From UHGV virus genome UHGV-0180138: a DNA stretch of 46,657 bases. One strand, 5' to 3'. Origin of the DNA: a virus. The translations under genes were made by a program, and so were the position numbers. The notes beneath the pieces are model-generated. The model ran no database searches, was not told where the DNA came from, and saw nothing but the letters and a program-made list of their open reading frames with translations. Below, one piece after another: positions 689 to 39,053 of this stretch; position 1 is the stretch's first letter, and each line of letters opens with the position of its first letter.

Positions 689-994
689 TGATTTTTCTCC
701 TATGGTTAAAATGAACGCGCTGGCGGATATCCCATTATCATTAGATAGCAGTGATTGACCGCTTAACAGATCCCGCCGTTGCGTGATATTTGTTTTTCGC
801 TTCGCAGCGACACCTGGTTTTTAAAGAGCATAAGGTATGCGCCTTTTTGTGCTATTCCGTTATCTTTTTTCTTGCGTCTTTGCAACTATGGCCTTACCTT
901 GTCTGCAAGTTTACAGAATGGCGTTTTTGGGTCAAGACTTGAAAAATACATTTTGTGACTTGTATCAAACTTTTTGAGGTTATAGGGTAGCGAC
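689..994. promoter_or_regulatory. divergent control region between leftward replication operon and rightward repressor gene
   Basis: 306-bp non-coding gap between divergently oriented genes; contains variant GTTTACAGAATGGCG motif (909-923) and a TTTTTCGCTTCGCAGCG stretch (about 803-822) resembling the element at 23859 and 36726. Confidence 0.5.
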
Positions 995-1642
995 ATGAAA
1001 ACAAAATGGTATGACTTAGCAAAGCAGCTCATGCGAGCGCAAGGTATGAGCCAAGATTCACTCGCGGATCTCATGGGGATAACTAAAGGCGGCCTGTCAC
1101 ACTGGCTTAACGGTCGCCGCGAGCCAAATCTTGAAGATATTGCGCGGATTATGCGGGCGCTTGGTCGTCGGCAATTCACTGTTACACATGATGGAATGGT
1201 CATTGATGATTCTGTTTCTAACACGTTACCGGGAGCGCCGCAGCGTGATTTAGGCAGTTACCCGGTTGTTGACTGGAAGGACACAGTAAACAATATGGAT
1301 GATACAAGGCTATCAACATTACCACACGTTACGACTAGCGTTATTTGTTCAGATGATAGTTACTGGCTGGTTGCCAAAGGTGAATCAATGAACGCACCGC
1401 AAGGGTTGAGTATCCCTGCCGGGACGATGATACTTGTAGACCCGCACGCGCCAGCTATTGACGGCAAACTGGTTATAGCCCAGCTTGAGGAAGGGCAGAT
1501 ACCGACGTTTAAACAGTTGATTATTGATGGAGGTCAAAGGCTTTTACGTTCGCTCAATCCGCTGTATCCGCCAATCCCTATGAATCCAGAATCAAAAATT
1601 ATAGGCGTGGTGGTTGATGCGAAGATTGTAAACCTGCCATAA
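995..1642 (+). CDS. CI/LexA-like repressor (XRE-type HTH + S24 peptidase domain)
   Basis: 215 aa; N-terminal HTH (QDSLADLMGITKGGLSHWLNGRREPNLEDIARIM), C-terminal S24 fold with Ser in GESM and downstream Lys (FKQL); SD-like AGGGTAG before ATG. Confidence 0.85.
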   Translation: MKTKWYDLAKQLMRAQGMSQDSLADLMGITKGGLSHWLNGRREPNLEDIARIMRALGRRQFTVTHDGMVIDDSVSNTLPGAPQRDLGSYPVVDWKDTVNNMDDTRLSTLPHVTTSVICSDDSYWLVAKGESMNAPQGLSIPAGTMILVDPHAPAIDGKLVIAQLEEGQIPTFKQLIIDGGQRLLRSLNPLYPPIPMNPESKIIGVVVDAKIVNLP

Positions 1643-1751: not shown

Positions 1752-1765
1752 GTATACAAAATGGA
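1752..1765 (+). promoter_or_regulatory. conserved motif GTATACAAAATGGA abutting -35 of early promoter
   Basis: Instance of recurring TACAAAATGG core; ends 1 nt before TTGACT. Confidence 0.5.
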
Positions 1766-1794
1766 TTGACTCGATGTTTTACGGGGCGTATATT
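1766..1794 (+). promoter_or_regulatory. sigma70-type early rightward promoter
   Basis: TTGACT (1766-1771) - 17 nt spacer - TATATT (1789-1794); near-consensus. Confidence 0.65.
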
Positions 1795-2141: not shown

Positions 2142-2432
2142 ATGAGCGTTACAATTATGTATGGCAAATGTGACAGTAAACTGAATGCCAGGGAACGCAG
2201 AAGGATAAAAAGAGAAAACGAAAGAAAATCATCACCTGCAATCAATAAAACAGACAATGTGGATAAAGCTATTCGATTTGCAAACGAGGAAAGATGCAAA
2301 CCAAATAGCATTAAAGAACGTCGCAAAGGGCCAGTAAAATGGTATACGGAAAATGAAAGCGGCAGCTACTACCACGCAACGCAACCACGCCATTTAGGGG
2401 AAAAACCCCTGGATAAAGTCCGCTACCATTAA
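2142..2432 (+). CDS. small basic protein with arginine-rich motif, N-like antiterminator candidate
   Basis: 96 aa; NARERRRIKRENERK resembles the arginine-rich RNA-binding motif of lambda/P22 N; first gene after nut-like leader; SD GGAGA. Confidence 0.45.
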   Translation: MSVTIMYGKCDSKLNARERRRIKRENERKSSPAINKTDNVDKAIRFANEERCKPNSIKERRKGPVKWYTENESGSYYHATQPRHLGEKPLDKVRYH

Positions 2433-5861: not shown

Positions 5862-5960
5862 CCGAGTGATTCCGATCACATAAATATACATTATGTATTG
5901 TGATCGCATATCCGTTTTGTAAGCCAAAATCAAAAGGTTTACGGTGCGGAGGAAGCAAAA

Positions 5961-9880: not shown

Positions 9881-9961
9881 GTTTACAAAATGGCGTCATT
9901 GCGTGATGCGGATCACATAATGGCGCTTTTTGCCTTGTTTTGGGGTATCCATTTTGTATAC
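9881..9961. promoter_or_regulatory. inverted pair of conserved motif (GTTTACAAAATGGCG at 9881-9895 plus; GTATACAAAATGGA at 9961-9948 minus)
   Basis: Direct reading; intergenic gap after methyltransferase gene. Confidence 0.5.
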
Positions 9962-12936: not shown

Positions 12937-13234
12937 AGATCTACATTTAAACCTGAAAGGAGAATACTTTTACGCTATCCGGGCGAGAAAGAAGGTGGAG
13001 GAATACCGACTTTATAATGACTACTGGCGTAAACGCCTGGAAGGGCGGGAATATGAACGCCTGATCATTAAGCTGGGCTATCCAGCCAGCCACGAAACAC
13101 ACCGGATCATAAACCTGCCTTATTTCGGGTATGAAGTGAAAACTATCACACATCCATTGTTCGGCCCTGATCCTGTAAAGGTATTCGCAATTAAGTGTGA
13201 TGTGAATTGGATGTTAAGGTGGGGTGAGCAATGA
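12926..13234 (+). CDS. hypothetical protein
   Basis: ATG 12926 within track ORF 12890-13234. Confidence 0.5.
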   Translation: MASKDLHLNLKGEYFYAIRARKKVEEYRLYNDYWRKRLEGREYERLIIKLGYPASHETHRIINLPYFGYEVKTITHPLFGPDPVKVFAIKCDVNWMLRWGEQ

Positions 13235-16623: not shown

Positions 16624-16641
16624 ATGTGATCTACCTCGCAA

Positions 16642-32040: not shown

Positions 32041-32055
32041 ATCCGGGCGTTTTGC
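32032..32055. terminator. bidirectional terminator hairpin
   Basis: GCCCGG-tagat-CCGGGC with T-run on plus strand and T-rich flank on minus strand; separates convergent genes. Confidence 0.5.
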
Positions 32056-32429
32056 TAATTGAAATCTTTAATTGCTGTACCTGGTGAACTGTGTGTGATT
32101 GTATTGTATACAGACTTTGCCTTACTGCGATCTTTCCATTCTTTTAGGATGCAGTTATCAAACTTTGCGATAACCCTTGAAGGGGATAATTCTTCAACAT
32201 CCATGTAAGTAAATCCTATCGTGCTGGTTACTGAATACCATACGTGATAACTATAATTACCGTCATGCTCGATTCTTTGTGGTTCCCCCATTATTTTATT
32301 CACTTGCTCACAAGTCATTCCAACTTGCAATTTTTTATCAGCTAACTTAACGAAATCAGTTGATCTTGCGCACCCTGTAAGAGCTAAAGCCATAACACCA
32401 ATGAGAACCGCTTTGATTATGTTTTTCAT
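32055..32429 (-). CDS. lipoprotein with BamE/SmpA-OmlA-like domain
   Basis: Signal peptide plus lipobox LTGC; LQVGMTCEQVNKIMGEPQRIE resembles BamE-family motif. Confidence 0.55.
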   Translation of the reverse strand: MKNIIKAVLIGVMALALTGCARSTDFVKLADKKLQVGMTCEQVNKIMGEPQRIEHDGNYSYHVWYSVTSTIGFTYMDVEELSPSRVIAKFDNCILKEWKDRSKAKSVYNTITHSSPGTAIKDFN

Positions 32430-32439
32430 GATTTACCCC

Positions 32440-33099
32440 TTAATTCCAGTTGCAAGCGTTTTTCACTTTGTCGATGTGGTTATAAAGACCATCAATGTTA
32501 AACACCGCTTTCTCAATGTCGCCAGCTTCCGGCACTACTTCAATGATGAATTGTTTTTCGTTAACCATTTTTTTAATCATTGGGATGGCTTTTTTGCCGT
32601 CCCATAATCCAAGAGCTTTATAATTAGTTGACCGTCCCCACTCAGTAGCTACAGCTTTGTGAACGCCGATCCGGTAGTTAATATAAGTAGTGTCCCCGGC
32701 GTCAGTTACATGGTGTGACCATGCTACGAACATTTTTGTTTTATTACCCTGGCAAGCGATTGTTAATACCGGTTTATTCTTATCCTGTGCCTTCAGTGTC
32801 GGGAAAGCATCAAGACTTCCGCTGAATTGTTCTGCTTTCACAAAAAGGAATACGTTTTTTGCGTCCTGCATATCATCTTTTCTTTCAACTACAAGCCACT
32901 GTTTACCAGCATTTTCTTTTTCTAACTGTGCATCGTATGCGGCTTGTTTTGCTTGTTGTTCTGCAAGCCATTTAGCATTTTTCTCTGCTAATGCTTGTTG
33001 TTCTTGATTGGTCACTATAGGCGCTTTTTCATTATCCTCATTGCAACCAACCAGACCCAATACCGCCGCAATCATTGCCACTTTTGCTAACCGTTTCAT
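32440..33099 (-). CDS. lipoprotein (219 aa)
   Basis: Signal peptide plus lipobox LVGC; Gln/Ala/Lys-rich linker then globular domain. Confidence 0.6.
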   Translation of the reverse strand: MKRLAKVAMIAAVLGLVGCNEDNEKAPIVTNQEQQALAEKNAKWLAEQQAKQAAYDAQLEKENAGKQWLVVERKDDMQDAKNVFLFVKAEQFSGSLDAFPTLKAQDKNKPVLTIACQGNKTKMFVAWSHHVTDAGDTTYINYRIGVHKAVATEWGRSTNYKALGLWDGKKAIPMIKKMVNEKQFIIEVVPEAGDIEKAVFNIDGLYNHIDKVKNACNWN

Positions 33100-33146: not shown

Positions 33147-33186
33147 TATACAAAATGGAGTCGTTGAAGTAAAGCCATTTTGTATA
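33147..33186. promoter_or_regulatory. perfect inverted repeat of conserved motif: TATACAAAATGG (33147-33158) / CCATTTTGTATA (33175-33186), 16-bp spacer
   Basis: Direct reading; between leftward lipoprotein genes and rightward tape measure gene. Confidence 0.55.
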
Positions 33187-33226: not shown

Positions 33227-35572
33227 ATGGCTACCAGTGTAGGTACAATTTATTACGAAGTTGATGCAAAAACTGGTCAACTTCTCGTTGCACAACGACA
33301 GGCAGACCAGGCCTTTGACCGTATAGAGCGCGGCGCAAAACAGGCTGACCGCCAGGTAAACACCCTGAAAACATCCATCAAGGCACTGACCAGGGTTATC
33401 CATTTGCTAATTGCTGCGGAGGCTGTGCGCCAATTTATGGATATGGCGGAGCAAGCAAAAATGCTTCGCGTAAAAATCAAAATGCTTACGGGCGATGCGG
33501 AGTCCGCCGGACGGGTTTTCGACGGCCTGAAAGCAATATCCAGGGAAACGGGGCAGAGCCTGAAGGATACTGGCGAACTATGGCAGGGCCTGGCTATCTC
33601 ACTGAAGAACACGTCAGCTACGGAAGGGCAATTGCTTAACCTGGTTGGCACTATTCAGAAAATGGGGGCGTTAGGCGGCGCATCAGCGGAACAGATGTCT
33701 AACTCTATGCGCCAGTTCCGCCAGTCTATAGACGGCGGCGTGCTGCGTGCTGAAGAATTTAACAGCCTACTTGAAAACACCCCGACCATCGTACAAACAA
33801 TGGCCCGCCATATGGGATTATCAATGGGCCAGTTCCGCGCTGAAATGCTGGACGGCAAGATCACGGCAGAAAGGATGGTTAACGCAATCCAGGCGGCTAC
33901 GCAGGAAACAAACGAGCAGTTCGCGCAGTTGCCTCGCACATCCGGTATGGCTATCAATGAGCTTAAAGTCGAAATCATGGGCCTTGTTGAGCAGCTTGAT
34001 GATCTTTTCGGCGTATCAGATGGCGTAGTCTCAGCTATCGACTTGATCACAAAAGGCGTTAAGGGGTTAGGTGAGGGCGCTAAATTCGCTAAAACCTGCT
34101 TCGATACACTCAAAACGGCTGGTGGCGAATTCATCGACATGTTTGATGATGTGGCTGTGAAGGCTGGCGAGGTGGCAGAGAAGATCATCGCAATGGTGAC
34201 GCCAATCAAGGCGCTTATGGACGCTTATAAATGGATGAAGGAGGTTGTAGATAAGCGCAAGGAAGAACTAAATAACAATCCTACAAAAATGTTCGGACCG
34301 TTAGTAGGCCAGGTGATGACGCTTAAAAATGATCTCGATGCAGTTCGCAAGAAAGGTGAGGAAGCGAAAGAAGCGTTAACTGCACCAGATGACGGAACTA
34401 TTACCGGATTCGATAAGCCAGTGGACAAGCCTAAAAAGGGTAAGAAAACTGGCAGCAAGAAAAGCAAAGAGGATACGCTTGGTGACAAAGGCATAAGCGT
34501 TTCCGACATGTACAACAGAGACGCCGCCGCCATGCGCAAAGCGTTAGAGAACGGAAAAGCCATTGATGCTGCGTTCGCCCAGGGAAAAATAACCCTGCTT
34601 GAGTACCGCGCCGCTCAAAAGGGGATTGGCAAGGAACTGAAGGAAGAATTAGCACAGATTCCGGTAGATGAATTGCGTGATAAATGGTCGCAAATAGTTA
34701 GCCCGATGGACCAGCTAAAAGGCGAAGTTAACCCCATCCAGCAGGCACAAAATGAATGGGCCGTCCGTAAGCAAATGCTTATCGACCTGGGCGCTACCGA
34801 AGCGCAACAGAAACAGGAATTGTTAGCCTATGAGCAGCAGATCCGCGATCTGAAATGGGAGCAATGGCAGGCGCAAAGCCAGACAAACGGCCTGATCGGT
34901 GATTGCGTTAATGGCCTTAAAGGTGGTATGAGCAATGCGCTTGTTGGCCTGTTAAACGGCACTCAATCATTGAGTGATGTTTTTGCTAACTTAGGCAGCA
35001 ATATACTTGGGAATATCGGTAACAGACTTTCGGACATAGCTGCCAACTGGATAGCAGATCAAATCATGATGGAGACACAAAGCAAAGCCACGCAGGCCAG
35101 CACAACGGCAAGCGCGGTTGCCGCTCAGGGAAGCATTGCGGCGGCGGCGGCCCCAGCCGCGGCGGCAACTGCGGCATCAACTGGCGGCAGCTGGGCGGCG
35201 GCTGGTTCGGCGGCACTTACCGCGATCATGTCGCTGGCTACGTCAATTTTTGGTGGCGGGCGTTATAATGGTGGTTCGGTTAACGGTGGTAGCCTGTATC
35301 GCGTAGGGGAACACGGTAAGCCGGAATTATTCCAGACTAATAACGGTCGTCAGTATATGATACCTGGCGAAAATGGCAGAGTAATTCCTAATCGTGACAT
35401 TGGCGGCGGCGGTGGCATCAACATGCCAGTGACCATCAACGTCCAGACCACGAACGGATTCAGCGACGATGACAGCCGCAGACTTGAGCAGACGATGGAA
35501 CGTGTAGCTATGAAGATGATAACAAGGGAATCTCAAAGACCGGGCGGAATGTTGCAACCGCGCCGCAAATAA
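33227..35572 (+). CDS. tail tape measure protein
   Basis: 781 aa, largely alpha-helical with Gly/Ala-rich C-terminal part; precedes M-L-K-I-J block; SD GAGG. Confidence 0.85.
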   Translation: MATSVGTIYYEVDAKTGQLLVAQRQADQAFDRIERGAKQADRQVNTLKTSIKALTRVIHLLIAAEAVRQFMDMAEQAKMLRVKIKMLTGDAESAGRVFDGLKAISRETGQSLKDTGELWQGLAISLKNTSATEGQLLNLVGTIQKMGALGGASAEQMSNSMRQFRQSIDGGVLRAEEFNSLLENTPTIVQTMARHMGLSMGQFRAEMLDGKITAERMVNAIQAATQETNEQFAQLPRTSGMAINELKVEIMGLVEQLDDLFGVSDGVVSAIDLITKGVKGLGEGAKFAKTCFDTLKTAGGEFIDMFDDVAVKAGEVAEKIIAMVTPIKALMDAYKWMKEVVDKRKEELNNNPTKMFGPLVGQVMTLKNDLDAVRKKGEEAKEALTAPDDGTITGFDKPVDKPKKGKKTGSKKSKEDTLGDKGISVSDMYNRDAAAMRKALENGKAIDAAFAQGKITLLEYRAAQKGIGKELKEELAQIPVDELRDKWSQIVSPMDQLKGEVNPIQQAQNEWAVRKQMLIDLGATEAQQKQELLAYEQQIRDLKWEQWQAQSQTNGLIGDCVNGLKGGMSNALVGLLNGTQSLSDVFANLGSNILGNIGNRLSDIAANWIADQIMMETQSKATQASTTASAVAAQGSIAAAAAPAAAATAASTGGSWAAAGSAALTAIMSLATSIFGGGRYNGGSVNGGSLYRVGEHGKPELFQTNNGRQYMIPGENGRVIPNRDIGGGGGINMPVTINVQTTNGFSDDDSRRLEQTMERVAMKMITRESQRPGGMLQPRRK

Positions 35573-35577
35573 CACTA

Positions 35578-35604
35578 AGGCCGCTTATAGCGGCCTTTAT
35601 TTTA
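35578..35604 (+). terminator. rho-independent terminator after tape measure gene
   Basis: AGGCCGC-ttata-GCGGCCT followed by TTATTTT. Confidence 0.65.
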
Positions 35605-35889
35605 CATGGTGAGAATATAAATCAAACAGCACAGGAATACAGGTGCGGCGAAGTCGCAAACGCTAGCCATATTCCATGCTTTAGGTAAGAATCCGCCATA
35701 CCACGGCATTCTTTCCCGTTTTCCACCGCAAAATTCCGCTATGTAACGATATTCAGCCTGCGTGTGTTCCCGTGCAAAAAAGAATGTACATCCAATCAGG
35801 CCGCCAGTGAGATAATCACCAGTAAGCAGGCCGATAACAACCTGCATAGCCGCCGCAGCAAGTGCGTGACCAATAACGGTTAAATCCAT
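35602..35889 (-). CDS. small membrane protein
   Basis: 95 aa, three hydrophobic segments; last gene of leftward cassette. Confidence 0.5.
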   Translation of the reverse strand: MDLTVIGHALAAAAMQVVIGLLTGDYLTGGLIGCTFFFAREHTQAEYRYIAEFCGGKRERMPWYGGFLPKAWNMASVCDFAAPVFLCCLIYILTM

Positions 35890-35891
35890 AG

Positions 35892-36077
35892 TTAATCCCC
35901 CTGATCGTTCTCAAATGTGCCATCTACAAATTTTTGAAGCCCGGCGATAAGTTGTGTAGCCTGCGATTTTTCAATTACGATGGTGTCACTCCCCATAAGT
36001 TCGGTTATCCACAGCCGGTCATTCTCATCAAGATCTAACCTAACTCCGTAACATAACTCTGTTTCGTCAATAATCAT
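35892..36077 (-). CDS. small acidic protein
   Basis: 61-aa ORF in leftward cassette. Confidence 0.45.
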   Translation of the reverse strand: MIIDETELCYGVRLDLDENDRLWITELMGSDTIVIEKSQATQLIAGLQKFVDGTFENDQGD

Positions 36078-36186
36078 TTTTCCCCCTATAATCTTCCGTT
36101 ACGTGCGATGTACCCCCTGCCGAACATCACTAGCCAGATGTTCCAGATCTCACGCCAGGTATATTTCTCATCCTCCATACCCCACC

Positions 36187-36441
36187 TCACTTATGGCAAC
36201 CGCGCACGCCAGATAATTCATTAAATTTGTGATGCTCGACGATTACCCATGCTTTCAAGTCTTGGCTATAAACACGCCAATCTAAATTGGCGCGGAAGGC
36301 GTAGCCGTAGCCGTCCTTTAATTTTTTGGGTGCAACATCTTTGTTTAAAAACGCGTTCAGAAGTTCTTTTGCTTTTTTGATTACGTGTCCAGGTGCGTTT
36401 TTCTGTGCTTTCAGGTTTTTGTCAATCGCTACCAGTTTCAT
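36187..36441 (-). CDS. RelE/YoeB/ParE-superfamily toxin-like protein (candidate)
   Basis: 84 aa; pattern VIKKAKELLNAFLNKD...KKLKDGYGYAFRANLDWRVYSQDLKAWVIVEHHK resembles RelE/ParE fold (helices then strand with W/Y-R-V-Y and V-I-V-x-x-H); SD GGGGTGAG; motif-level only. Confidence 0.35.
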   Translation of the reverse strand: MKLVAIDKNLKAQKNAPGHVIKKAKELLNAFLNKDVAPKKLKDGYGYAFRANLDWRVYSQDLKAWVIVEHHKFNELSGVRGCHK

Positions 36442-36458
36442 AACTCACCCCATCATCC

Positions 36459-36614
36459 TTAGTTAAGTTCCTTCAGGAAGAAGTCCCGGTATTCATCTTC
36501 TTTCGCATTCATCATGAATTGACCGTATTTGAATGCGTCGTCGAAACCCTTAACGATTGCTATTTCCACTTGTTCGAATGCGTTGTTTAGCATTACCACT
36601 ACATAGCGTTTCAT
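36459..36614 (-). CDS. small protein, possible partner of downstream toxin-like gene
   Basis: Start set at ATG 36614 after strong SD AAGGAGG (track ORF extends to 36689); 51 aa. Confidence 0.45.
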   Translation of the reverse strand: MKRYVVVMLNNAFEQVEIAIVKGFDDAFKYGQFMMNAKEDEYRDFFLKELN

Positions 36615-36684
36615 TTTGGGCCTCCTTCGTTGGTACTGCTTTTCTTCTTGCTTTCTGTATACATCTTGTTTAGTGCCATGTGAA

Positions 36685-36699
36685 GCCATTTTGTAAACT
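36685..36699 (-). promoter_or_regulatory. conserved motif AGTTTACAAAATGGC (minus orientation) at head of leftward cassette
   Basis: Reverse complement of GCCATTTTGTAAACT; oriented with the leftward genes. Confidence 0.5.
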
Positions 36700-36725
36700 A
36701 GCTATAATCATTGTGATGTAGATCT

Positions 36726-36757
36726 CATTTTTCGCGTAGAAGCGCGTAAAGATATAT
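36726..36757 (+). promoter_or_regulatory. second copy of conserved element (CATTTTTCGCGTAGAAGCGCGTAAAGATATAT) upstream of tail gene M
   Basis: 27 of 31 positions identical with 23859-23889. Confidence 0.45.
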
Positions 36758-36782
36758 ACAAAGTGTAACTTATGGGGGTTTT

Positions 36783-37136
36783 ATGCCGGAAGTGTTCAGA
36801 TGGACGCCGCAACGAAGCTACAGCGTGACCAGGGAGCCAGACGTATCTGTTGTTAAGCTGGGCGATGGTTATGAGCAAAGACAGGTAAAAGGTATCAATC
36901 CATTGCTTGATAGCTACACCCTGGTGTTTAAAGGCAGTAGCGCCGGATGTGGTGATAGTGGAAACGTAGCAATCCAGGCGGAAGCATTCTTGAGGGCGCG
37001 CGGCGCGGTCGAGGCTTTTTACTGGTCGCCGTCGATGGATAACGTGCAAAGGCTTTTTGTTTGCCGTAGTTGGAGCATGACCAAAGACGGACCGCTATAC
37101 ACGCTAAACGCAACATTTGAGCAAGTTATTAATTAA
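36783..37136 (+). CDS. minor tail protein M (lambda gpM-like)
   Basis: FRW...GDGYEQRQ...FYWSPS...FEQVIN parallels lambda gpM (FRW...FGDGYSQR...FLWTPP...FEQVVN). Confidence 0.8.
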   Translation: MPEVFRWTPQRSYSVTREPDVSVVKLGDGYEQRQVKGINPLLDSYTLVFKGSSAGCGDSGNVAIQAEAFLRARGAVEAFYWSPSMDNVQRLFVCRSWSMTKDGPLYTLNATFEQVIN

Positions 37137-37146
37137 GGGAGGGGAT

Positions 37147-37329
37147 ATGCCTTATTTTTGTGTAGTGGAGCGCACTGGCGCTTTTACATTGTTTGCCGAC
37201 TATGAAATTAATGATCTCACTGTACGGGCTGATAACGGTGAGACGTGGTATCTCCATGATATGGGTGATGGATATGTTGGCTGTACGACATGGGACGGAA
37301 AAGAAGTAGCATTTCTATCCTACGATTAA
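37147..37329 (+). CDS. hypothetical small protein
   Basis: ATG 37147 after SD GGGAGGGG; 60 aa. Confidence 0.45.
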   Translation: MPYFCVVERTGAFTLFADYEINDLTVRADNGETWYLHDMGDGYVGCTTWDGKEVAFLSYD

Positions 37330-37356
37330 AAAACACCCCGCGAGAAGCGGGGTTTA
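37327..37356. terminator. terminator hairpin (mainly for leftward cassette)
   Basis: ACCCCGC-gagaa-GCGGGGT; A-run upstream gives T-run on minus strand; near-identical stem to terminator at 44815. Confidence 0.55.
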
Positions 37357-37429
37357 TAGTGTTGATAGCAGAATGCATAACAATCCAATAATGATAATAA
37401 TCATTTCCAGAACGTAATGTTCGCACATC

Positions 37430-37678
37430 TCATAACGCCCCCTTCAAATATGTCAATCCCTTATCAGTGACGAATGAATGATTCACCTGGTTTTCATCCG
37501 TCATGATGATGAATAACTTTTCCTGTAGGTGTTTCGCTTTCGGGTACAGCGTTAAGCAGACCTGGTACAAAATCCCGCGCTCAATCAGCAAATCAATAAA
37601 TTCGTGCTCATGATAACCGATAAGGCGGGCGGCCTGTTTCAACGTGTATACATAGTCACCGTGATTGCGCCGCGCCAT
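37430..37678 (-). CDS. putative HTH DNA-binding protein
   Basis: 82 aa; YTLKQAARLIGYHEHEFIDLLIERGIL resembles an HTH. Confidence 0.45.
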   Translation of the reverse strand: MARRNHGDYVYTLKQAARLIGYHEHEFIDLLIERGILYQVCLTLYPKAKHLQEKLFIIMTDENQVNHSFVTDKGLTYLKGAL

Positions 37679-37686
37679 ATTGCCAC

Positions 37687-38049
37687 CTATTTATCGAAGC
37701 AGCCTAAGTTATCAATACAGAAGTCTTTAGCGGCTTTTTCGTATTCCTGTTTTGCTTTCGGATCGTCTGCCGGGAAACCTTTCGCGTGTATTTCACCAGG
37801 GCAAGACTGGTCCATAGAATCTGCATAATAAGCAGTGAAGCTACTATTAATATCTTTCGGGTTCATAGCGTTGTCCTCGTCTGGTTCGTCGTCTGGTATT
37901 TCTATCGGGTTAACTGTAAAGTCACATGCTCTGTTCCAGCACCGGAGAATCTCAAGTCCTTCTCCGCGTGCATTTTCATACGTTTCGAATAACCCCAGGT
38001 ATTCCCATTCTTGCCTATCAGTCCAAACATCTAAGCGCCATTTTCTCAT
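37687..38049 (-). CDS. hypothetical acidic protein
   Basis: Start set at ATG 38049 after SD GGTGGG (track ORF extends to 38103). Confidence 0.45.
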   Translation of the reverse strand: MRKWRLDVWTDRQEWEYLGLFETYENARGEGLEILRCWNRACDFTVNPIEIPDDEPDEDNAMNPKDINSSFTAYYADSMDQSCPGEIHAKGFPADDPKAKQEYEKAAKDFCIDNLGCFDK

Positions 38050-38218
38050 TTCGCCCACCATTGAATTTAATAGGTTTAATCCGGTAGCCCATGACTCGAT
38101 CATCTTTTTCTGATAGGTCTAAGGCCGTATCTAATGCGTCGCCAGGATTATCGAATTCAGCCTCGACATCACGCCCATTACTCATAAATAAGGTGAGTAT
38201 CCATAACTTATCATTCAT
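38018..38218 (-). CDS. hypothetical small protein
   Basis: 66-aa ORF, first gene of leftward cassette. Confidence 0.45.
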   Translation of the reverse strand: MNDKLWILTLFMSNGRDVEAEFDNPGDALDTALDLSEKDDRVMGYRIKPIKFNGGRNEKMALRCLD

Positions 38219-38232
38219 CCTGCGCCCCTTGT

Positions 38233-38247
38233 TCCATTTTGTTAACT
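38233..38247 (-). promoter_or_regulatory. variant of conserved motif (AGTTAACAAAATGGA, minus orientation) upstream of leftward cassette
   Basis: One-base variant of GTTTACAAAATGG; oriented with leftward genes. Confidence 0.4.
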
Positions 38248-38348
38248 TACCCTCCGTTTGAGTAAAATATACATATTGTAAAAACCGCGATCAATCCATT
38301 TTGGTATGATTTAGCGTGACGCAGATCACAAAATCAGAAGGTGAATAA

Positions 38349-39053
38349 ATGCGCAATATACCTACAGAAATGATTATTGATTCCGTCGATGCCGGAGTCG
38401 GCGCGGTCATTGACCTGTTCGAACTGGACCTTACGCCAATGGGTGGCGAGGTTATCCGCTTCCATTCCGGCGCAAACGGCTATTACGGCCCGGTTATCTG
38501 GAAGGGCGTGGCTTACAACAGCTACCCGATCGAGGCGACGGGCTTCGAAATGAAAAACGAGGGTGTTTATTCGCGTCCTCAAATGGTTGTAGCCAACATT
38601 GGCGGGCTAATCACAGGGATGAATAACGATTTCAACGACCTGCGAGGAATGAAGGTTACGCGCCGCCAGGTGGAGGTTAAATACCTGGACGCCGTTAACT
38701 TCCCTAACGGCAATCCAGACGCAGATCCATCTATTGAGGCTGTATCTTTTTACGTCGTTGAAGCAATGAGCGAAGAAACAGCGGATCAGGTGCAATATGA
38801 ATTGTCAACGCCAATTGATGCAGATAAAGCCGTTATCCCAGGGCGCACCATCCTTGCTGACGTTTGTCAGTGGCAATACAGAGGCGACGGGTGCATGTAT
38901 TCTGGCGGCCCGGTCGCAACTGATAAAGATACACCAACAAGTGACCCAACGTTAGACAAATGCAGCCACCGCCTTAGCGGTTGCCGTTTGCGTTTTCCGC
39001 GTCCGGCAGCACTGCCGATCTCCTGTTTCCCTGGTTCCAGCAAGGTAGGTTAA
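38349..39053 (+). CDS. minor tail protein L (lambda gpL-like)
   Basis: LFELDLTPMGGE...GFE...TGM...LDAVNFPNGNPDADP...PGR..LA..CQWQYRGDGC.YSG...PTSD..DKCSHRLSGC parallels lambda gpL. Confidence 0.85.
   Translation: MRNIPTEMIIDSVDAGVGAVIDLFELDLTPMGGEVIRFHSGANGYYGPVIWKGVAYNSYPIEATGFEMKNEGVYSRPQMVVANIGGLITGMNNDFNDLRGMKVTRRQVEVKYLDAVNFPNGNPDADPSIEAVSFYVVEAMSEETADQVQYELSTPIDADKAVIPGRTILADVCQWQYRGDGCMYSGGPVATDKDTPTSDPTLDKCSHRLSGCRLRFPRPAALPISCFPGSSKVG

Follow-up and report, generated by a model that had tools for sequence, protein, structure and literature searches.

The subject of this analysis is a small gene cassette in a window of 46,657 nucleotides (nt), which is the whole of the stretch of DNA that was analysed from the virus genome UHGV-0180138. 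The cassette lies among the tail genes, points leftward, and includes a gene for an 84-amino-acid (aa) protein of the RelE/ParE superfamily and, directly ahead of it, a gene for a 51-aa protein. Our preferred reading, to which we give a probability of roughly 0.45, is that the 84-aa protein is an accessory effector with a RelE/ParE fold, probably of the RNase type, whose control is mainly transcriptional, and that the 51-aa protein is a linked but dispensable partner that is specific to this phage lineage. This reading rests on predicted structure and on comparisons of sequences.

An initial annotation of this DNA had proposed that the two genes form an antitoxin-toxin pair. In part, this proposal has held up: the toxin fold, the order of the genes, their linkage in most related loci and the charges of their products agree with it. 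However, four related loci lack the 51-aa gene, the two proteins do not co-vary, and the 51-aa protein has no recognisable antitoxin domain.

Fold and conserved residues of the 84-aa protein

The 84-aa protein matches the Pfam family PF24732 ("ParE-like toxin domain") over residues 19-74, with a score of 31.7 bits against a cut-off of 24.4 (E = 1.5e-7). Its close homologues fall into only 14 clusters, to all of which PF24732 is assigned, and an exhaustive HMMER search of 1.84 billion representatives returned 11 proteins. At the sequence level this is a small family, to which a profile search added remoter PF24732 members from Enterobacter, Hafnia and metagenomes. The protein has no match in NCBIfam or PADLOC, and searches of PDB sequences, conducted both with the protein and with its profile, gave nothing meaningful.

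We modelled the structure with AlphaFold using a 28-sequence alignment (A3). The resulting model, with a predicted local distance difference test (pLDDT) value of 84.4 and a predicted template modelling (pTM) score of 0.70, has the topology beta-beta-alpha-beta-beta-beta-alpha, in which strands at residues 3-7 and 10-13 are followed by a helix (18-32), three further strands (47-50, 55-59, 65-69) and a final helix (70-77). It has the features expected of the superfamily, i.e., a helical segment on a three- to four-stranded antiparallel sheet in a protein of about 80-100 aa. When this model was searched with Foldseek, YoeB was the top match (probability 0.96), followed by YafQ and HigB, and structures of ParE2-PaaA2 were also among the matches. 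An earlier model based on 13 close homologues (pLDDT 66) had yielded only noise in Foldseek, and was superseded. The structure prediction that the initial annotation had suggested as a check, together with the PF24732 match, bears out the RelE/ParE fold and the helix-then-strand pattern that were originally read from the sequence. On the evidence of the family match and the model, the 84-aa protein is a member of the RelE/ParE superfamily, representing a phage-borne branch of this fold.

It might seem from the names given to the family that the protein is a ParE-type gyrase poison, a question of target that is independent of the question of an antitoxin. Pfam uses the name ParE_like, and the RefSeq product name in complete Escherichia coli genomes is "ParE family toxin-like protein". 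However, these names appear to reflect the fold rather than a demonstrated ParE activity or a defined antitoxin; we found no paper that mentions PF24732, and no experimental characterisation of the family. In both fold searches, the RNase-type members HigB, RelE, YafQ and YoeB ranked slightly above every ParE entry. The conserved residues also lie at positions that are plausible for an RNase. Among PF24732 members at 20-30% identity, K40, L41 and R56 are invariant, while H70, Y/F73 and N/D74 are conserved in most members. R56 is located within the middle strand, in the sequence DWRVY. We used hhalign to compare the 84-aa profile with the sequences of E. coli YoeB, YafQ and RelE, and in the YoeB alignment, which is not significant, R56 is paired with R65 (in EHRLVY), at the position of R61 in RelE. 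The His and subsequent aromatic residue after the last strand of the 84-aa protein recall R81 and Y87 of RelE, which along with R61 are key residues for cleavage by that toxin (PMC2807027). Because of R56, H70 and Y/F73, the net charge of +9 (isoelectric point, pI, of 9.9) and the higher ranking of RNase toxins in the fold searches, we lean towards mRNA-interferase activity. The 84-aa protein is most likely an endoribonuclease-type effector of the RelE/YafQ/HigB kind that is directed at mRNA or the ribosome, with an activity and a target that we infer from sequence and model, and a gyrase poison appears quite improbable.

Another explanation is that the RelE fold has been repurposed and is not toxic. 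The protein might, for example, regulate by binding RNA or the ribosome, or act as a decoy against host defence by titrating antitoxins or toxins of the host, and the job of the 51-aa protein would then be unrelated. This explanation would be in keeping with the tolerance of the 84-aa protein without its partner (see below), and with the occurrence of the family in several phage groups and in satellite-like islands among small accessory genes. The atypical N-terminal topology, the modest structural scores and the absence of YoeB-type acidic catalytic residues, as judged by the non-significant hhalign alignment, also point in this direction. However, the conservation of K40, R56, H70 and Y/F73 at 20-30% identity is suggestive of an active site more than of a scaffold, active RelE-type toxins typically carry a strong positive charge, and no positive evidence was found for a decoy function. 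We therefore regard a non-toxic protein as unlikely.

The 51-aa gene and the loci that lack it

We analysed 55 mEp021-like loci, taken from GenBank phages, E. coli genomes, Logan/NCBI contigs and IMG/VR. The 51-aa gene is directly ahead of the 84-aa gene in 51 of these loci, none of the seven mEp-type phages that have been sequenced lacks it, and each of the 42 IMG/VR loci with a 51-aa protein also holds an 84-aa gene. In the window, the two genes are adjacent on the same strand, 17 nt apart, and share a single predicted promoter. Both are real genes under strong purifying selection. For 25-41 distinct alleles, we calculated a median pairwise ratio of nonsynonymous to synonymous substitution rates (dN/dS) of 0.037 in the 51-aa gene and 0.066 in the 84-aa gene; the essential tail gene M also has a value of 0.066.

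The remaining four loci have an 84-aa gene but no 51-aa gene. They are found in GCA_964047275.1 (locus L007), in E. coli UMNK88 (NC_017641; L025) and in two IMG/VR genomes of 53-57 kilobases (L053 and L056). In our alignment of the loci (A4), the deletion is clean, and spans from one 7-nt ATGAAAC repeat to the next, where these two repeats are the first bases of the 51-aa gene and of the 84-aa gene, respectively. As a result, the conserved promoter and a Shine-Dalgarno sequence, AGGGGGA, come to stand right in front of the 84-aa open reading frame (ORF). In all four loci this ORF is intact and retains all conserved residues, and dN/dS among these genes is approximately 0.05-0.1. For example, the L007 and UMNK88 genes differ mostly by synonymous changes (dN 0.05, dS ~1.0). 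The 84-aa protein of L007 (P0010) has exactly the same sequence as copies from loci with the partner, and the UMNK88 genome has only one matching place, so no copy in trans is evident. Since these related phages keep the 84-aa gene intact without the 51-aa gene, the latter is probably not a required antidote. The toxin-like gene can occur alone but its supposed antitoxin never does, an asymmetry that is the opposite of what an addiction pair predicts. The fact that the junction is the same while the 84-aa alleles are separated by a dS of ~1 suggests that one deletion was later spread onto different alleles by recombination.

The sequences of the two proteins also do not point to an obligatory partnership. 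One identical 51-aa protein is coupled with ten different 84-aa proteins, whose mutual identity is as low as 60%, and the pairwise divergences of the two proteins are uncorrelated (r = 0.06). Domains typical of antitoxins, namely ribbon-helix-helix (RHH), helix-turn-helix (HTH), AbrB and Phd/YefM, were not detected in the 51-aa protein using Pfam, NCBIfam, PADLOC or PDB. Specifically, there was no Pfam match at E <= 1, a single chance-level match in NCBIfam (E 0.14; 11.6 bits vs a cut-off of 500), and in a search of PDB with the 51-aa profile only a chance-level match to CagT (E 0.034) that had no significant stretch. All five cassette proteins were compared with the PADLOC defence models, with zero matches at E <= 1, and a search of plasmids with the 51-aa protein found no match. 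The protein is confined to the mEp021-type phage group and has no detectable relative beyond it; in particular, it is not similar to the proteins encoded on either side of PF24732 genes in distant lineages. We also considered that the 51-aa gene might be a generic leader that is paralogous to the 51-66-aa head gene of a second leftward cassette (see below), but rejected this idea, as BLASTP gave no alignment and hhalign a probability of 0.3%.

It is important to consider the observations that weigh against our preferred reading, several of which would suit a canonical type II pair. In such a pair, the 51-aa protein would bind and neutralise the 84-aa toxin, both would be made in the lysogen, and the outcome would be abortive infection, exclusion or prophage stabilisation. 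The 51-aa gene is kept and constrained in 93% of loci, never occurs alone and encodes a protein of opposite charge (pI 4.85 vs 9.9), and these properties are compatible with an antitoxin. The toxin fold shown by PF24732, the model and Foldseek, the position of a small gene with a strong Shine-Dalgarno sequence a mere 17 nt upstream, and the strong purifying selection on both genes also favour a pair. Antitoxins without a DNA-binding domain exist, e.g., PaaA2 of the prophage-encoded paaR2-paaA2-parE2 system, and this too counts for a pair. Distant PF24732 genes are mostly coupled to their upstream gene, with a 4-nt overlap in Escherichia phage Sortsne, Serratia phage OS31 and Hafnia, and 20 nt in Enterobacter; such tight coupling resembles that of mix-and-match toxin-antitoxin operons.

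Further points concern expression, the deletion and the fold. Self-promoted leftward genes in a late operon are classically expressed in the lysogen, as is Tai of phage phi80; its gene, taiEcA, is an antisense gene in the late operon that is damped by late transcription, and the cassette is located in a similar site (PMC11364771). If the 84-aa gene were expressed in a lysogen, this would call for an antidote. The four loci without the 51-aa gene share a single junction, and thus amount to one deletion event, and all four keep a downstream 30-aa ORF that is a possible alternative neutraliser. The model of the 84-aa protein has a beta-hairpin at its N terminus, where canonical toxins carry a helix. 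The hhalign alignments to YoeB, YafQ and RelE were all non-significant, so our mapping of catalytic residues is a guess, and in the YoeB alignment the catalytic Glu46 is paired with a basic residue (Lys). The catalytic sets of these toxins consist of E46, R65, H83 and Y84 in YoeB, and of His/Asp/His in YafQ.

We regard a type II pair as a serious rival, though a less probable one than our preferred reading. It is at odds with the clean loss of the 51-aa gene in front of intact, selected 84-aa genes that retain the promoter and Shine-Dalgarno sequence, with the identity of the L007 protein to partnered copies and the lack of a second copy in UMNK88, and with the reversed asymmetry of solo occurrence. 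The two proteins also do not co-vary. Aside from chance-level matches, the 51-aa protein is without counterpart in Pfam, NCBIfam, PADLOC, PDB and plasmids, it is unlike the neighbours of other PF24732 genes, and PADLOC has no model for either protein.

Promoter elements, cassette layout and phage setting

The cassette's promoter was below the threshold of our promoter scan, and we assigned it from its likeness to better promoters, namely those of the N-like gene and the second leftward cassette. The initial annotation stated that the cassette is headed by a conserved motif, and we found that this motif, ACAAAATGG(C/A)TT, heads all three leftward cassettes in the window. When one mismatch is allowed, the window contains 10 matches vs 1.8 expected, a count that was reached in none of 100 shuffles. 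A common register of ACAAAATGG, -35 hexamer, 17-nt spacer and -10 hexamer is found in this cassette, in the promoter of the N-like gene (at 1756; TTGACT-N17-TATATT), in the other two leftward cassettes (at 33183 and 38304) and at 16647, and a variant of ACAAAATGG is beside the gene for a CI-like repressor (at 945). In alignment A4, ACAAAATGG is near-invariant, with changes at single positions to G in one locus and to T in three loci without the 51-aa gene. Certain copies are followed after 12-16 nt by an inverted partner, CCATTTTGT (at 33150 and 16670). The element may serve this phage group as an operator, as an activator site or as a proximal UP element.

Palindromes of the type TGTGA-N6-TCACA, which resemble CRP sites, are also over-represented. 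With at most one mismatch, there are 7 in the window vs 1.17 expected, again a count that none of 100 shuffles reached. Five of the seven are just upstream of ACAAAATGG promoters, at roughly the distances of class-I CRP sites. They may indicate control of accessory cassettes by cyclic AMP (cAMP)-CRP, or may instead be sites for a phage regulator. Because the ACAAAATGG element is common to early promoters next to the repressor, its presence suggests that the cassette may be part of the phage's own regulatory circuit. Control by such a circuit would explain how a toxin-like gene without a partner is tolerated.

Under our preferred reading, the 84-aa gene, the 51-aa gene and variable cargo would be transcribed leftward, within a late tail operon that runs rightward, from a sigma-70-type promoter of their own, which carries the element of the early promoters next to the CI-like repressor gene. 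The activity of the 84-aa protein would be controlled mainly by transcription, through the phage regulatory element, possibly through CRP, and through antisense late transcription. The protein would act as an RNase-type effector on mRNA or the ribosome, while the 51-aa protein may modulate or buffer it without being an obligatory antidote. The fold and family of the 84-aa protein, the purifying selection, the linkage of the two genes, the intact copies that have no partner and the common promoter elements are shown by the data, while the timing of expression, like any role in host shut-off, exclusion or defence, is inferred.

The positions of all features are listed in the table. The window matches the mEp021 ("mEpimmI") group of temperate coliphages, with identities over the matched part of 89.5% for MagusPhagus, 87.6% for mEp515 and 80.3% for mEp021. 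The alleles of the 51-aa and 84-aa genes in mEp515 and MagusPhagus are 94-98% identical. Annotated relatives have the same order of tape-measure gene, small leftward block, M, small rightward gene, second leftward block and L-K-I-J. This layout and the flanking genes agree with the initial annotation's view that leftward genes interrupt the tail gene order between the tape-measure gene and M, and our ORF check recovered the four minus-strand ORFs that it reported at 35602-36614. Among complete E. coli genomes, 36 of 5426 (<1%) have a matching gene, while a scan of species-representative genomes (one genome per species) found no locus. The paper on the mEp021 group (PMC11893012) is silent on these leftward cassettes, and an Rfam scan of 35300-38500 found nothing credible as a non-coding RNA.

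Within the cassette, the 51-aa gene does have the strong ribosome-binding site that was attributed to it, AAGGAGG located 7 nt ahead of the ATG. Many database entries start this gene at upstream ATGs, resulting in proteins of 68 or 76 aa (36615-36689, minus strand). One of these ATGs is inside the ACAAAATGG promoter element, and both are upstream of the predicted transcription start. Since they fall inside or upstream of the predicted promoter, we prefer the 51-aa start, and the longer versions are probably over-extended annotations. The cassette was also said to be bracketed by terminators, which is true of one end: a strong bidirectional hairpin separates the tape-measure stop from the cassette end, at a place where a terminator is annotated in mEp021, but no terminator-like site is present at the promoter end (36615-36782).

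A fifth small ORF, of 34 aa, had been overlooked. It is kept in about 60% of relatives with 72-90% identity, its counterpart is annotated in MagusPhagus as a 30-aa coding sequence, and relatives such as L003 have a 49-aa ORF with the same MRW start. The small acidic protein and the hydrophobic protein that had been noted in the cassette are both present. Close copies of the 61-aa acidic protein (77-90% identity) occur in only five related loci, four of which have the 95-aa gene, and the two genes occur together in only four related loci (L048, L054, L061 and L069). Elsewhere, their slot is occupied by other small genes or by an HNH endonuclease gene (mEp515 and E. coli E21845), which makes the H-M junction a hot spot for accessory cargo. 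A membrane protein beside the tape-measure gene recalls superinfection-exclusion proteins such as gp15 of HK97.

Two further leftward cassettes are present in the window, both on the minus strand. The second (37430-38218) is flanked by gpM and a 60-aa gene on one side and by gpL on the other. The gene at its head encodes 51 aa in most relatives and 66 aa in the window, where the stop has been lost and the gene runs into the next ORF. This gene is followed by genes for a 138-aa protein (phrog_38567) and an 82-aa protein with a KilAC/ANT domain (PF03374, 28.1 bits), and then by a terminator at 37335-37353. The third cassette (32055-33099) is just ahead of the tape-measure gene and has the same promoter motif. 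It contains a 124-aa ORF and a gene for a 219-aa protein (phrog_1848) that bears a lipoprotein-type signal (…LGLVGC), and a surface or exclusion function is possible.

Table. Positions of the cassette genes, regulatory elements and flanking genes (window coordinates unless a locus is named)
Feature	Position	Strand	Details
51-aa gene (phrog_29810), supposed antitoxin	36459-36614	minus	pI 4.85; Shine-Dalgarno AAGGAGG
84-aa RelE/ParE-superfamily gene (PF24732 ParE_like; phrog_1525)	36187-36441	minus	pI 9.9
34-aa ORF	36086-36190	minus	GTG start overlapping the 84-aa stop; alternative ATG at 36178 gives 30 aa
61-aa strongly acidic protein (phrog_13627), variable cargo	35892-36077	minus	pI 4.05
95-aa hydrophobic membrane-type protein (phrog_1443), variable cargo	35602-35889	minus	
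Bidirectional intrinsic terminator	35577-35597	both	lies between tape-measure stop and cassette end; stem of 9 base pairs (bp) with 6 GC pairs; T runs on both strands
Predicted sigma-70 promoter	36656-36684	minus	-35 TTCACA 36684-36679; 17-bp spacer; -10 TATACA 36661-36656
Conserved element ACAAAATGG	36686-36694	minus	immediately ahead of the -35 hexamer
CRP-like palindrome TGAGATCTACATCACA (TGTGA-N6-TCACA type)	36712-36727	minus	~60-75 bp upstream of the predicted transcription start
ACAAAATGG(C/A)TT copies	945-956(-), 1756-1767(+), 9885-9896(+), 9946-9957(-), 16647-16658(+), 33172-33183(-), 36683-36694(-), 38293-38304(-)		
CRP-like palindromes	954-969, 5865-5880, 9902-9917, 13135-13150, 16625-16640, 36712-36727, 38315-38330		
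Tape-measure gene	33227-35572	rightward	from annotation of homologous phages/prophages
gpM (minor tail protein M)	36783-37136	rightward	from annotation of homologous phages/prophages
gpL	38349-39053		from ORF list and relatives' annotation
CI-like repressor	995-1642		opposite end of window
N-like antiterminator	2142-2432		opposite end of window
Deletion region in loci without the 51-aa gene	L007 3826-4012; L025 (UMNK88) 1843-2030; L053 2326-2512; L056		

Distant PF24732 genes and known systems

Membership in PF24732 was confirmed for proteins of Escherichia phage Sortsne (68 bits) and Serratia phage OS31 (64.8 bits), and for gp471 of the jumbo Klebsiella phage K64-1 (40.7 bits), which is annotated as a "YafQ-like ribonuclease toxin". 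Islands of Enterobacter and Hafnia also harbour PF24732 genes, which are located there within arrays of unknown small genes. The genes immediately upstream belong to at least five unrelated families (51-aa, 118-aa, 125-aa, ParB-HTH and DUF5417), and each PF24732 sublineage retains its own upstream partner. The PF24732 gene overlaps the end of a ParB-HTH gene in Serratia phage OS31 (L024 668-1701) and in an Enterobacter asburiae island (L009 2397-3213), whose ParB-like proteins are 39% identical to each other. In Hafnia and Enterobacter hormaechei the overlap is with a DUF5417 gene, and in K64-1-like jumbo phages the PF24732 gene follows a conserved 118-aa gene. Occurrence in other phage groups next to unrelated neighbours, and the absence of a recognisable antitoxin domain, are compatible with an effector that acts in the course of infection.

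These observations lead us to a broader and rather speculative idea, about which we have considerable doubt. PF24732 proteins might be phage-wide RelE-fold effectors that have no dedicated antitoxin, in the manner of RegB of phage T4, and that are expressed from regulated antisense cassettes in temperate mEp021-type phages and from accessory regions in other phage groups; the 51-aa protein, an ORFan, would be an optional modulator of a new kind, and the phage-specific ACAAAATGG promoter elements and CRP-like sites would define a small regulon. If such an effector family exists, its targets would be host or phage mRNAs, or it would counter host defences.

Phage genes with a RelE/ParE fold are usually labelled as toxins, and an antitoxin is presumed. 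The natural variation described here offers a direct test of this presumption, and its main value is that one and the same toxin-like protein is found both in the company of its supposed antidote and on its own, under an unchanged promoter. Should the 84-aa protein prove to be an active RNase that phages tolerate in the absence of an antitoxin, it would extend the RegB type of phage nucleases to a temperate phage, and would advise caution in automatically annotating PF24732 genes as parts of toxin-antitoxin systems. If the two genes are a classical pair, they would be a prophage module of a known type with a new family of 51-aa antitoxins. In either case, Pfam and RefSeq already cover the gene, which is present in under 1% of complete E. 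coli genomes, and its wider importance is limited accordingly.

Among established groups, the 84-aa protein and its close relatives belong to PF24732 and the corresponding RefSeq family, being above the curated cut-off or assigned. They differ from the RelE, YoeB, YafQ and HigB interferases in that there is no significant sequence similarity and a beta-hairpin takes the place of the first helix. The 51-aa partner, in turn, lacks a domain of the RelB, YefM, DinJ or HigA type, and is naturally dispensable. The ParE2-PaaA2 system of an E. coli O157 prophage (paaR2-paaA2-parE2) has a third, regulator gene and a gyrase-targeting toxin. For the 51-aa protein, no similarity to any PDB entry was found.

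The taiEcA/atiEcA genes of phi80, which are antisense defence genes of the "moron" or non-contiguous-operon kind, resemble the cassette in that they are leftward, self-promoted genes within a rightward late operon, to which late transcription is antisense (PMC11364771). However, their proteins and functions differ, and the promoter of our cassette shares an element with early promoters. Because this element is common to early promoters of the phage, expression of the cassette in a lysogen is not assured. T4 RegB was absent among the fold-search matches listed for the 84-aa model, and differs from the 84-aa protein in its length (153 aa), in its catalytic residues His48 and His68, and in having no sequence relationship to it. 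Nevertheless, RegB is a phage RNase with a RelE/YoeB fold that is controlled by the timing of its early promoter and has no known antitoxin (PMC3014915). We therefore adopt it as a working model for the 84-aa protein, in the sense of a likeness of mechanism and not of membership in the same family.

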